Sequence record: PQ571289
Length of the DNA: 64,000 nucleotides
Reading direction: 5' to 3' (one strand)
Source: Escherichia phage EF1-1
A program made the position numbers and the translations under genes. The notes beneath the pieces are model-generated. The model was given only the letters and a program-made list of their open reading frames with translations, was not told where the DNA came from and searched no databases. Every line of letters starts with the position of its first letter. Position 1 is the stretch's first letter. Positions 61,168 through 64,000 of this stretch are shown here, in pieces.

Positions 61168-61432
61168 ATTTAGAGAATGACGCGCAGGGGCGGTGTTTGT
61201 CTCGCGCTCCCGTGTCCCCTCGCCATGTAATAAGAATAACAGATCCAGCCAGGAAAGCAAGCGATTATTTTTATCTTTACATTTCTTTACAAATATATAG
61301 CGCCCAGCCTCCCGGCGATCGACCTTCCAACCGGTGCCCCCTGGTATGTTAGCCCCGCCTTTACGCCGTGGGGGTGGCGCTTCCTCTTCTGTATGTAAAA
61401 CAGTATAAGCCCGATCCCTGGGCTTGTCAAGA

Positions 61433-61699
61433 TTATTTTTTGTTTTCTTGCCAGGATAGGACACCTAACCAAAAATGCATATCGCCCCGCGCCCCTGGTG
61501 GGATCTTGCTTTCCCCGCCGCCACTGCAAGCCCATAAATAACCATCAGCGAACGGATCAAAGTTTTCTATTTCTTCCACCTTATGATCGCCCAGGTTGAG
61601 AACTGTTTCAACCTTTAAGCCCGTTGCGCTTGCTACCTGGTGTACCGTGCCGCCTTGCCAGCCTAATGAGTGCATGAGATGTAAAGTACTATTTGTCAT
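61433..61699 (-). CDS. hypothetical protein with GC-rich, enterobacterial-like codon usage
   Basis: 88 aa ORF; SD 'aagggcg'; candidate promoter upstream; codons GGC/CTG/GCG dominate unlike the rest of the window. Confidence 0.4.
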   Translation of the reverse strand: MTNSTLHLMHSLGWQGGTVHQVASATGLKVETVLNLGDHKVEEIENFDPFADGYLWACSGGGESKIPPGARGDMHFWLGVLSWQENKK

Positions 61700-61746
61700 G
61701 GTATCGCCCTTTCTTTGTTGTGCGCCCAGGTTGGCGCGGTAGAAAG

Positions 61747-61775
61747 ATAATAGCCCTTTCCTTTATATACAGCAA
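61747..61775 (-). promoter_or_regulatory. candidate sigma70 promoter for the 61433-61699 gene
   Basis: On the - strand TTGCTG, 17 nt, TATTAT. Confidence 0.35.
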
Positions 61776-61808
61776 GCAAAAAAGAAAATAAAAAAGATTA
61801 AAAAATGG

Positions 61809-61837
61809 TTGACGTTCCCCAGGGGGTAGCGTATTAT
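61809..61837 (+). promoter_or_regulatory. sigma70-like promoter (divergent from 61747-61775)
   Basis: TTGACG, 17 nt, TATTAT. Confidence 0.5.
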
Positions 61838-61972
61838 TCATCTTGTCGAGGGGGGCGAGGCACAACGACAATAAACAAAAGGAGGGCGCGATGCAGGACG
61901 GGCAAAGGTGAGGATCTCCATAATCCACCGTCCACCAACAAAAAACATCATTCATAACCTGGAATTAAGATC

Positions 61973-62170
61973 ATGGCAACATTGCACATAGTAGCGAAAG
62001 CAGGACAAATCAGCGTAATTGTAAACGGTTTTACTGAATTCAGTCATCCCCAGGATGATCATGAAACGGTTTTATCTTTTATTGATTCCTTGTTAGAAAT
62101 GGGAGTCATTACAGAAGATCAGCACGCTACAAAATGCAAGCGCGTTAATCAAATTGCAGAAATAGAATAA
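61973..62170 (+). CDS. small early-type protein
   Basis: 65 aa ORF downstream of the 61809 promoter. Confidence 0.4.
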   Translation: MATLHIVAKAGQISVIVNGFTEFSHPQDDHETVLSFIDSLLEMGVITEDQHATKCKRVNQIAEIE

Positions 62171-62176
62171 AAAGTA

Positions 62177-62238
62177 TTGACAACGTTTTTTAATCTGATA
62201 AGATGTATCACATAGGGCGGCGGAATGGTCCACCGCCC
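62177..62238 (+). promoter_or_regulatory. promoter plus 5' stem-loop cassette
   Basis: TTGACA, 16 nt, TG-n-TAAGAT, gtatcacatag, hairpin gggcggcgg-aatggt-ccaccgccc. Confidence 0.6.
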
Positions 62239-62258
62239 ACAATAGAAGAGAAATCATC

Positions 62259-62531
62259 ATGGCATCATATAGCGCAACAATGATCGTAGCTGGCATCACT
62301 GGTAAACCTATGAGCGGTGGCGGATCTTTCGCTAATATCAATATCGACGGACGTTTATCCCTGGACGCAGCGATCGCCATTGCACGGGATACATTCAAAA
62401 AAGAATGTAAATTCAACAAACAAAATTATCTCGGTTTTGCTATTGAAAAAACCGCGCGTTTTGTGGATTATAAAAGCCCGAAAATGGTTGATACTACACT
62501 AAAAGCGCAAGATGTAGCGTTTTTGCTTTAA
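62259..62531 (+). CDS. small early-type protein
   Basis: 90 aa ORF, SD 'agaagag', directly downstream of the cassette. Confidence 0.5.
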   Translation: MASYSATMIVAGITGKPMSGGGSFANINIDGRLSLDAAIAIARDTFKKECKFNKQNYLGFAIEKTARFVDYKSPKMVDTTLKAQDVAFLL

Positions 62532-62534
62532 GGC

Positions 62535-62589
62535 TTGACGCTAACGAATAATTTGTTAATATGTTACATAACGCGGGAATAGTTCCCGC
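62535..62589 (+). promoter_or_regulatory. promoter plus 5' stem-loop cassette
   Basis: TTGACG, 16 nt, TG-n-TAATAT, gttacataac, perfect hairpin gcgggaa-tag-ttcccgc. Confidence 0.6.
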
Positions 62590-62607
62590 TGTTTGTAAGG
62601 TGATACA

Positions 62608-62865
62608 ATGTTTTACATCAAATTAAAAGGTCACGTTATCGCGTTCAAGGATAAAGCTTTTTACCGGTTAGCTAAATATGCTTTGATCCATCCTCATTAT
62701 GTTTACATAAGGGGGCGCGATGAGATAAATATCTTTGATCAAACAACATGCGAAAACATCGAGATCCGCAAGGTTGGCGTACGTGATTATCGTACATCTT
62801 TCTACCCTTGCAAGGATTCCGCAAGTCTTTTTAAGGTGTGCCGATTATTGAAAAAAGGTGGGTAA
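62608..62865 (+). CDS. small early-type protein
   Basis: 85 aa ORF, SD 'taaggtg'. Confidence 0.45.
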   Translation: MFYIKLKGHVIAFKDKAFYRLAKYALIHPHYVYIRGRDEINIFDQTTCENIEIRKVGVRDYRTSFYPCKDSASLFKVCRLLKKGG

Positions 62866-63436
62866 TATGGGCCGCGAATATGTGATCCAAACCTGGGTAA
62901 AACATGAAGCAGATGATCCGCGCATCATTCCCGATCATCTTGTCGATGAATCCACGGGCTATAGCGGGGAGCAAATAGGCAACAGATTAGCACGCAGTAA
63001 CGGCAACGTAAAAGCGCGCTATGTGCGCCCTGGTTGGCTGGCGAATGGTACCGCTGATTTATCCAGTGCGGAAGATACGAGCGACGGCGCGAAAGATAAT
63101 CCCTTGTACAAAATTGATCCGGCTTTTCGTGTCCTGGATGAATATCCCAGCAAGATAGCGGCGCTCGATCAGGCCCTGGAAAGTAAGCGCATCACCTGGA
63201 CCGCTTACAACATGGCAAAAAACGTACTTGATGGTAAGCTGATCCAGGCTGAAAGAAAATTAGCCAAAATTGCAGCCATAGCCCAGGAGGAAGACGAGGA
63301 AACAACGGAAGAGGAAGAGTACGAAGAGATCCCGCCGTTGTTGTGTGTTGATGCTTTTCCTGATTATCAACCGACAGAGGAAGAAAAAAGGATCGCCCTA
63401 GAAAACTTTGAAAATATTATTGACAACATTTTTTAA
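62858..63436 (+). CDS. early-type protein with acidic C-terminal region
   Basis: 192 aa; EEDEETTEEEEYEE stretch; GC-rich codon usage. Confidence 0.45.
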   Translation: MGNMGREYVIQTWVKHEADDPRIIPDHLVDESTGYSGEQIGNRLARSNGNVKARYVRPGWLANGTADLSSAEDTSDGAKDNPLYKIDPAFRVLDEYPSKIAALDQALESKRITWTAYNMAKNVLDGKLIQAERKLAKIAAIAQEEDEETTEEEEYEEIPPLLCVDAFPDYQPTEEEKRIALENFENIIDNIF

Positions 63437-63480
63437 TCTGATAAGATGTATCACATAGGGCGGCGGAATGGTCCACCGCC
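63420..63480 (+). promoter_or_regulatory. promoter plus 5' stem-loop cassette (near-identical copy of 62177-62238)
   Basis: ttgacaacattttttaatctgataagatgtatcacatagggcggcggaatggtccaccgcc; overlaps the 3' end of the upstream gene. Confidence 0.6.
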
Positions 63481-63501
63481 AAAACAAAAAAGGGTAACAC
63501 A

Positions 63502-63864
63502 ATGATCAAGCAAATCAGTACAATCATGTTTTATCTTTTATCTTTCCGCGTCGATGTGAAAAATTTAACACGTGAATCGGTCGATATTCATGTTTCAGCT
63601 TATCGCTCCCTTATTGATATGTTACAGCTAAAACGTGATCAACATGCCGATAATATGTTGCTTAATGCTATGCTTAGAAATATGATTCAAACTGATCTAA
63701 CACTGGCGTACGAGTATCAAGGGCGGTTATATGCTACATATAGCAAGGCGGTACCTGGTTTGGGAAGTACAGAAGAGTTGCACGGCTTAAACCTGTATCA
63801 AAAAACTTGGGATAACATTAGAAGAGTTATGGTGTGGGCCGAACGCGGTAAAATTTACGAATAA
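63502..63864 (+). CDS. early-type protein
   Basis: 120 aa ORF following the cassette. Confidence 0.45.
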   Translation: MIKQISTIMFYLLSFRVDVKNLTRESVDIHVSAYRSLIDMLQLKRDQHADNMLLNAMLRNMIQTDLTLAYEYQGRLYATYSKAVPGLGSTEELHGLNLYQKTWDNIRRVMVWAERGKIYE

Positions 63865-63870
63865 AAACGT

Positions 63871-63909
63871 TTGACAAAGTTTTAAATTCTTTTAAAGTGT
63901 ATCACATAG
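63871..63909 (+). promoter_or_regulatory. promoter of the same family (no obvious hairpin)
   Basis: TTGACA, 16 nt, TAAAGT, then the conserved gtatcacatag. Confidence 0.45.
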
Positions 63910-63951
63910 TGCTGTAAGTTGTTTCACGCCAACAATGAAAAAGGTTATCAT

Positions 63952-64000
63952 CATGGATATTAATATAAATGTTTCCCCTTATGCTACCCTTGCTGACACT
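63952..64000 (+). CDS. 5' end of a gene running off the window
   Basis: ATG at 63952 preceded by 'aaaaagg'; frame open to the window end. Confidence 0.3.

Follow-up and report, generated by a model that had tools for sequence, protein, structure and literature searches.

The replication origin of phage lambda comprises four dyad-symmetric iterons and an AT-rich region and is activated by transcription from PR, the primary origin of T7 combines two tandem promoters with an AT-rich region, and oriF and oriG of T4 consist of a promoter and a downstream unwinding element. The T4-type phages carry promoter-early stem-loop (PeSL) cassettes, reportedly described by Arbiol, Comeau, Krisch and colleagues in 2010. 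Conserved palindromes of unknown function lie in the noncoding repeat region of T5 (Davison, bioRxiv 10.1101/866236), and the genome paper of phage rV5 drew an unexplained 'non-coding' box and could place no origin (PMC3606486). Here we analyzed a 64,000 nt stretch of Escherichia phage EF1-1 (PQ571289; hereafter the window), which is part of the genome of a ~150 kb Phapecoctavirus (phAPEC8-like, Stephanstirmvirinae) myovirus of E. coli. We focus on its right end, 61190-64000, where small genes adjoin a noncoding module that resembles parts of these systems.

A preliminary description of the window took 61190-64000 for a compositional island of close to 50% guanine plus cytosine (GC), made of recently acquired host genes. 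The rise in GC is modest and patchy, and it is not a single foreign island. The stretch has 43.2% GC as against 39.2% in 1-61189 and 39.4% in the whole window, which ranks it in the top 3.7% of equal-size windows, yet it is exceeded by 3770-6580 (44.3%) and 12038-14848 (43.7%), both of which correspond to tailspike/tail-fibre genes (3536-5755, 10637-13690, and 13752-15776). A content of about 50% was confirmed for two peaks, 61179-61678 (51.6%) and 62855-63354 (50.4%), but not for the block as a whole; these rank first and second among all 500 bp windows of the 64 kb, and GC drops to 35-41% in the stretches that separate them. The GC-richest piece, 61190-61432 (51.9%), is noncoding.

The excess of about four points probably has three separate causes, all of them old and phage-specific. 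The first would be a leftward module of ~0.8 kb (61181-61972), common to phAPEC8-like and rV5-related myoviruses, in which a gene for a small helical protein is followed by two tandem host-type promoters with GC-rich spacers and, between them, a G-rich noncoding segment of ~90 nt that is ultraconserved. The second would be three conserved phage genes (88, 90, and 189 amino acids [aa]) with codon usage part-way to that of E. coli; as their distant orthologues retain this composition, selection or long-standing heritage, for example early translation from the host transfer RNA (tRNA) pool, would lie behind it rather than recent import. The third would be repeated cassettes of a promoter and a GC-rich hairpin, which raise GC locally.

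A conserved noncoding module at the main GC peak

The 1.1 kb between the terminator at 60679-60715 and the promoter at 61809-61837 hold one gene only, which is read leftward and encodes 88 aa. Leftward of this gene, the following elements were found.

61402-61430, minus strand: predicted promoter P1 (TTGACA, 17 nt spacer, TATACT; 11 of 12 consensus positions)
61300-61395, minus strand: ultraconserved G-rich noncoding block, CGCCACCCCACGGCGwAAAGGCGGGGCTAACrTACCrGG[variable loop]CCwGGTyGGAAGGTsGATCGCCGG
61276-61290, minus strand: direct repeat GTAAAGAAATGTAAA, which fits GTAAA-N5-GTAAA, 5′ of the −35 hexamer of P2
61233-61260, minus strand: predicted promoter P2 (TTGCTT at 61260-61255, 16 nt spacer, TATTCT at 61238-61233)
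61181-61232, minus strand: GC-rich leader of ~50 nt, 3′ of P2; a possible long hairpin in it contains the conserved motif GAGACAAACACC
61065-61170, no strand: four 19 bp dyads, consensus AATGAKAATnATTMTCATT, starting at 61065, 61094, 61123, and 61152, spaced exactly 29 bp
60790-61060, no strand: AT-rich noncoding stretch (25-31% GC) with a 72 nt direct repeat (60843-60914 and 60981-61052, 82% identical)
60679-60715, plus strand: intrinsic terminator of the upstream rightward operon, read from the sequence (10 bp stem with one bulge, then GTTATTTTGT)

The conservation, promoter architecture, dyads, repeats, and noncoding nature of the module are established. We aligned 20 versions from about 11 clades. 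The ~90 nt block, which occurs once in the window, has a mean column identity of 87% over 10 clade representatives. Of 226 phage records of the Stephanstirmvirinae and Vequintavirinae, nearly all match its query positions 1-92 at 80% identity or more, and most leave it unannotated. The P1 hexamers are present in all 10 representatives; the 17-18 bp spacer varies freely and is always a GC-rich palindrome. In the window, a GC-rich hairpin (61407-61425) makes up this spacer and ATACTGTTTT comes next; together they also resemble a terminator for the 88 aa gene, whose stop lies 3 nt upstream. The P2 hexamers are conserved in 9 of the 10 representatives (TTGCAA/TTGATC ... TATATT/TATTAT), and the spacer varies. 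The GTAAA-N5-GTAAA motif, matched once in the window, is conserved in 10 of 10; it stands 5 nt from the −35 hexamer in the other clades and exactly 15 nt from it in the lineages of the window and Av-05, a shift that amounts to a 10 bp insertion and thus keeps the helical phase (one turn). The dyad consensus is matched four times against 0.34 expected and nowhere else in the 64 kb. All 10 aligned representatives have a version of the dyad nearest P2 that differs by one to three substitutions. Any leftward transcript would be G-rich, given the plus-strand GC skew of −0.16 to −0.22 between 61200 and 61600. The site homologous to the terminator at 60679-60715 is annotated as a terminator in phage ASO2A.

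This noncoding DNA varies less within the genus than do most of the small genes to its right. The segment 60624-61060 is 98.4-98.6% identical in two close relatives versus ~88-95% for most of those genes, 57 of 66 records match 60720-61190 at 95-99% identity, and the dyads are 95.8-100% identical. Farther away, the noncoding segment 61190-61432 is homologous, at ~70%, to noncoding DNA of rV5-related phages (4MG, Mydovirus, CR8, GAP31), with 369 matching records overall. An rV5-like phage has the same order of promoters, GC-rich leader, dyads, and AT-rich repeats, and the repeats themselves differ. In rV5-like phages (Escherichia phage pangalan, locus L022, 1860-2140), the 90 nt block is absent and two P2-type units lie in tandem, each consisting of a promoter, a GC-rich leader with GGAGACAAnCACC, and a dyad. 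The tandem units precede a 0.6 kb AT-rich region with different short repeats, which is the 'non-coding' box of the rV5 paper; our literature search found nothing else on this element than that label (PMC3606486).

Coding capacity was excluded. The loop of the block has indels of 2, 4, and 6 nt, a 1 nt indel shifts the frame, and the sole ATG is lost in one clade, which argues against a hidden coding sequence; likewise, a minus-strand open reading frame (ORF) at 61042-61464 is ruled out by the non-triplet indels in the variable loop. Neither do tRNA genes or their remnants account for the GC peak, since ARAGORN, applied to the window and to four related loci, found none. A physical genome end or terminal repeat was rejected as well: the terminal repeat of Schickermooser is 328 bp, and the element lies ~14 kb from the end, once per record.

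Hundreds of deposited phage genomes, therapeutic candidates among them, leave this conserved locus blank or annotate it wrongly. The value of the finding is to expose a deeply conserved noncoding module that had gone unannotated and to provide a precise map of the locus. Some of the inspected records have short hypothetical ORFs annotated across the locus, and in one record tRNA genes are assigned to it. The latter is Klebsiella phage vB_Kpn_K45PH128C2 (OY978796.1; locus L003), in which tRNA-Ile, tRNA-Met, and tRNA-Lys are annotated over and beside the homologous element (2616-2769). ARAGORN detected no tRNA anywhere in that locus, and this annotation is probably misplaced.

The module also moves between phage lineages as a mosaic unit. 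Compared with a distant relative in the Stephanstirmvirinae (L009/L019), 61181-61972 is 91-95% identical, and the flanking genes are 70-72% identical; conversely, in the close relative anhysbys, whose flanks are 94-98% identical, the allele of the 88 aa gene is 78% identical. These incongruent identities indicate that the module has been exchanged between lineages by recombination. In a Mydovirus-like locus (L018), a gene for a 197 aa HNH endonuclease (6420-7013, opposite strand; PHROG 953, E 8e-79) interrupts the ultraconserved block at the position of about 61310 in the window, between GGATCGC and CGGyAGCTCG. This gene has its own promoter, TTGACA-17-CATAAT, and seems to have entered a conserved target by a homing-type insertion.

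Possible roles: replication origin, noncoding RNA, or host-regulator sites

The order of the elements suggests what the module may do. Leftward transcripts from P1 and P2 would meet no leftward gene and would reach the four phased dyads and then the 270 bp AT-rich repeat region. Transcription itself, as well as any function as an origin or RNA, we infer from the sequence. We tentatively favor a cis-acting control region, and as first choice a transcription-activated replication origin in which, by analogy with lambda, T7, and T4, promoters would lead to phased dyad iterons and an AT-rich unwinding region. As expected for an iteron-type origin, four dyads 29 bp apart (61065-61170) lie beside a stretch of 25-31% GC with 72 nt repeats (60790-61060), and two predicted minus-strand promoters with conserved hexamers point at these repeats. 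Like those origins, the window has two tandem promoters, then four phased dyads, then AT-rich repeats, in a unit that is wholly noncoding and better conserved than the flanking genes. Unlike ori-lambda and the T7 and T4 origins, to which it has no sequence similarity, the locus has no identified initiator, the skew switch lies elsewhere, and its ~90 nt ultraconserved segment has no counterpart in them.

A noncoding RNA locus is nearly as likely as an origin or control region. One or two small regulatory RNAs might arise from the GC peak and regulate host or phage targets, or RNA polymerase, in trans: possibly a P1 RNA of ~100-170 nt with the ultraconserved block and, also possibly, a P2 RNA of ~85 nt, a long GC hairpin that would present GAGACAAACACC and end at the first dyad hairpin. 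Conserved sigma-70 promoters without a downstream gene are consistent with this, as are the two tandem P2-type units of rV5-like phages and the near-invariant sequence, which would suit an RNA with multiple contacts. The conserved stem has a loop that is variable in length and sequence and shows an A-U to G-C compensatory change. For the putatively transcribed leader, RNAalifold on the alignment gave 15 pairs, 2 of them with compensatory changes. Among predicted pairs on the leftward strand, there are 24 G-U cells versus 4 A-C cells, a count that is biased because the structure was predicted on the same strand. Against an RNA, Rfam 15 had no match at gathering scores; even at E < 5 nothing but noise appeared, so that no family was assigned, and neither tRNA nor transfer-messenger RNA was found in the element. 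A looser motif scan for divergent homologues that might reveal covariation returned ~80 chance loci, none of which was real by the covariance model.

Several observations weigh against our interpretation as a whole. P1 and P2 are predicted from conservation alone. No initiator gene was recognized nearby; a neighboring ATPase was considered for this role and rejected, having generic, classical AAA similarity only. The noncoding region contains no DnaA boxes, the switch in divergent transcription and GC skew is at ~54.5 kb and not at 61 kb, and near-invariance over 90 nt exceeds what R-loop priming needs. Neither unit is followed by a canonical terminator with a GC stem and U-tract, which counts against RNA products. 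The same is true of the structural data: 1 of 16 and 2 of 15 predicted pairs covary, most columns are invariant, single-sequence folding is no better than that of shuffled sequences (z −0.5 and −1.1), and the consensus folding energies are similar on both strands, for which reason strand assignment by energy was discarded. The RNA-structure evidence is thin because the sequences barely vary. The high identity of the 88 aa module to a distant relative shows some recent transfer from phage to phage. The codon shift is absent from the other small genes of the same block.

It is also conceivable, and in our view unlikely, that the dyads and the GTAAA repeat are sites for Fur and CpxR that would make the leftward promoters responsive to iron or envelope stress, or that the dyads titrate Fur. 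The consensus of the CpxR box, GTAAA-N5-GTAAA, is said to go back to De Wulf and colleagues in 2002. As in the E. coli box, the match at 61276-61290 is exact, is conserved across phage clades, and stands 5′ of the predicted −35 hexamer in all 10 representatives, as in a CpxR-type promoter, with its phase preserved through the 10 bp insertion; a chance match occurs in 24% of shuffles. The fourth dyad agrees with the Fur-box consensus (GATAATGATAATCATTATC) at 16 of 19 positions (61149-61167) and is likewise conserved across clades. With up to three mismatches allowed, it is the only match in the 64 kb versus none in 100 shuffles. The consensus of the dyad family, TGAGAATnATTCTCA, departs from the 7-1-7 half-site of Fur at one symmetric position, where it has G/C and Fur prefers T/A. 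Unlike a Fur box, the dyads do not lie over a −35 or −10 element: the 16/19 match is ~55-80 nt 3′ of the P2 start, and no recognizable promoter overlaps it. Unrelated T5-like phages that infect the same hosts carry these dyads too, a distribution suggestive of a host factor; a phage-encoded binder is equally possible. Taken together, the dyads and the CpxR-type repeat suggest that host regulators may bind here.

The T5 terminal-repeat region, with its injection-stop signal, resembles the window locus in having arrays of the same 19-21 bp dyads (AATGAGAATGATAATAATTCGCATT and similar) in conserved noncoding DNA and, in some members, an HNH endonuclease gene inserted among the repeats. It differs in that the T5 dyads lie beside DnaA boxes inside the terminal repeat; the window locus has no DnaA boxes, and the element is ~14 kb from the genome end in the relative whose 328 bp terminal repeat is known. 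In the T5-like Escherichia phage HK6 (locus L021, 1480-1690, near the start of the record), an array of the same Fur-box-like dyads adjoins a consensus DnaA box (TTATCCACA) and six TGTCGGATTTGCACA repeats in the terminal noncoding region, an untranslated repeat region like the one that holds the T5 palindromes.

A broader reading, which we hold to be doubtful, joins these observations: the main GC peak would be an undescribed cis-acting or RNA element common to two subfamilies of enterobacterial myoviruses and wired to host regulators, either an origin or a regulatory RNA. Its leftward unit would have a ~90 nt core, a CpxR-type box 5′ of P2, and Fur-type dyads 3′ of it, and, with the dyads also present in the injection-stop region of T5, a common host factor would link three phage groups. 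If the module is an origin or encodes a regulatory RNA, it would open a way to study how replication starts, or how the state of the host is sensed, in rV5- and phAPEC8-like phages, and it could help to explain the long-puzzling palindromes in the T5 terminal repeat.

Codon usage and ancestry of the small genes

Six genes lie in 61190-64000. Codon usage was scored as a per-codon log-likelihood ratio (LLR) of 31 E. coli K-12 genes versus 68 background genes of the window, which gave +0.262 ± 0.069 for the E. coli genes and −0.232 ± 0.076 for the phage background. GC1 and GC3 denote GC at the first and third codon positions.

61433-61699, minus strand: 88 aa gene, the only leftward one, for a predicted all-helical protein; 47.9% GC, GC3 0.48; LLR +0.036, z 3.5
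61973-62170, plus strand: 65 aa gene, ordinary phage composition
62259-62531, plus strand: 90 aa gene, codons shifted toward E. coli; LLR −0.010, z 2.9
62608-62865, plus strand: 85 aa gene, ordinary composition
62867-63436, plus strand: 189 aa gene at the second GC peak; 47.7% GC, GC3 0.49; LLR +0.134, z 4.8
63502-63864, plus strand: 120 aa gene, ordinary composition

The enterobacterial-like codon usage ascribed to these genes thus holds in part. Three of the six are shifted part-way to E. coli, and the value of the 189 aa gene nearly equals that of the lowest E. coli gene (+0.145), but the 65, 85, and 120 aa genes are ordinary (LLR −0.157 to −0.215, z 0.2-1.0). A preference for GC-ending codons is confined to the 88 and 189 aa genes, as no other gene there has an elevated GC3 (window mean 0.33, standard deviation 0.066). 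GC1 is also elevated in these two (0.56 and 0.58, respectively). The codon shift of the three genes is real but only partly explained. Possible causes are amino-acid content, in view of the GC1 of 0.56-0.58, and a selective preference for host-like codons in early genes; neither accounts for the unshifted neighbor genes.

Translational selection without any transfer might account for the GC-richness of the 88, 90, and 189 aa genes: as immediate-early genes, they would perhaps be fitted to the host tRNA pool before the phage tRNAs are expressed, of which members of the genus encode 10-13 each (PMC6563267). We regard this as possible. Strong host-type promoters precede the genes, the shift persists across diverged orthologues, and the background genes with the second- and third-highest LLR are also small genes, in the neighboring block. 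Three neighbors with the same kind of promoter are nevertheless unshifted, and the raised GC1 means that amino-acid content contributes.

The ancestry of the block was examined at the level of proteins and DNA. The 88 and 189 aa products are genuine proteins with many invariant residues; they have no Pfam family and belong to PHROGs without known function. Among 5.8 billion clustered proteins, their homologues lie nearly all on metagenomic contigs, the long ones of 78-157 kb, and the few named homologues are phage proteins; none is bacterial. Orthologues at 63-70% aa identity have 46-51% GC and a GC3 of 0.43-0.52 inside loci of 38-43% GC, from which it follows that the GC-rich composition is ancestral and has been maintained. 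At the DNA level, 139 deposited phage records match at least part of 60600-64000, mostly at 90-95% identity, and 55 of them cover at least 80% of it; for comparison, 50000-60000 is up to 97% identical to the records of relatives. The region is syntenic in the genus, and patchy presence among close relatives was not seen. No match to 61040-61975 (936 bases) was found among 5,426 complete E. coli genomes, the sole plasmid match to 61040-61440 is a mis-filed rV5-like genome, and a 22 nt motif of the conserved block hit only one phage-like contig of a metagenome-assembled genome in a scan of 185,579 bacterial genomes. A host or plasmid source of the DNA searched was therefore rejected.

The proposal that the block was freshly captured from an enterobacterial host and stands un-ameliorated under phage promoters is thus very improbable and already largely refuted, for, although three genes are displaced toward E. 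coli and flanked by promoter cassettes, 61040-61975 has no match in E. coli, the 88 and 189 aa proteins have no bacterial homologues, the region is syntenic across many Phapecoctavirus genomes, orthologues keep their GC-richness inside AT-richer loci, three of the six genes have an ordinary composition, and the part with the highest GC does not encode protein. What remains of the preliminary interpretation is that the promoter cassettes are real; comparison with relatives showed recent exchange between phages, i.e. inter-phage mosaicism, and no recent import from the host. The region is consequently unfit as evidence of recent horizontal transfer from bacteria and displays mostly the ordinary compositional patchiness of a phage early region.

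The two proteins differ in how well they could be modeled. The model of the 88 aa protein is a confident all-helical one (predicted local distance difference test [pLDDT] 94), for which no structural neighbor was found. The 189 aa protein has a conserved N-terminal part of ~100 aa, a long helix, and an acidic tail; its model is poor (pLDDT 65) and unfit for structural search. Because its homologues begin with MGREYV, the true start of the 189 aa gene is the ATG at 62867.

Promoter-hairpin cassettes and neighboring genes

The stretch 61190-64000 is the start of the small-gene region of the phage, served by host-type (sigma-70) promoters. In related records it is annotated as small hypothetical genes with predicted promoters and terminators between them, and in a close relative the small-gene region extends past the end of the window at ~41% GC versus ~38% upstream. 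The rightward promoters of the window are as follows.

61809-61837, plus strand: predicted promoter at the start of the small-gene series (TTGACG, 17 nt spacer, TATTAT)
62169-62238, plus strand: promoter-hairpin cassette, first copy (TTGACA, 16 nt spacer, TAAGAT, then GGGCGGCGGAATGGTCCACCGCCC)
62535-62589, plus strand: promoter and hairpin (TTGACG, 16 nt spacer, TAATAT, hairpin GCGGGAATAGTTCCCGC)
63412-63480, plus strand: cassette, second copy, 96% identical to the first
63863-63931, plus strand: cassette, third copy, diverged (67% identical)

The repeated promoter family described for these genes is real: a 69 nt cassette of a sigma-70-type promoter and a hairpin starts at 62169, 63412, and 63863. 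Two related loci (L002 and L008) contain at least eight copies each, and the hairpins add to the local GC. As in the PeSL cassettes of T4-type phages, a sigma-70-type early promoter with a stem-loop is repeated between small ORFs, and gene alleles are mosaic between relatives: both gene content and alleles differ among them. Unlike the PeSL phages, the window phage belongs to the Stephanstirmvirinae, and its cassettes do not share the PeSL sequence.

The 5′ leader of the 65 aa gene (61838-61972) contains a strong Shine-Dalgarno sequence, AAGGAGG, followed after 6 nt by ATG CAG GAC GGG CAA AGG TGA; this mini-ORF of six codons possibly encodes a leader peptide. Among the tailspike/tail-fibre genes, which are the usual mosaic receptor-binding modules, one matches a colanic-acid-degradation family. 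To the left of the noncoding element, the neighboring block of small genes encodes a phage tudor-domain protein (55187-55474), a protein with a CapR-homology domain and a weak T5orf172 match (58535-59533), and a NADAR-domain protein (60081-60623; Pfam E 8e-36).

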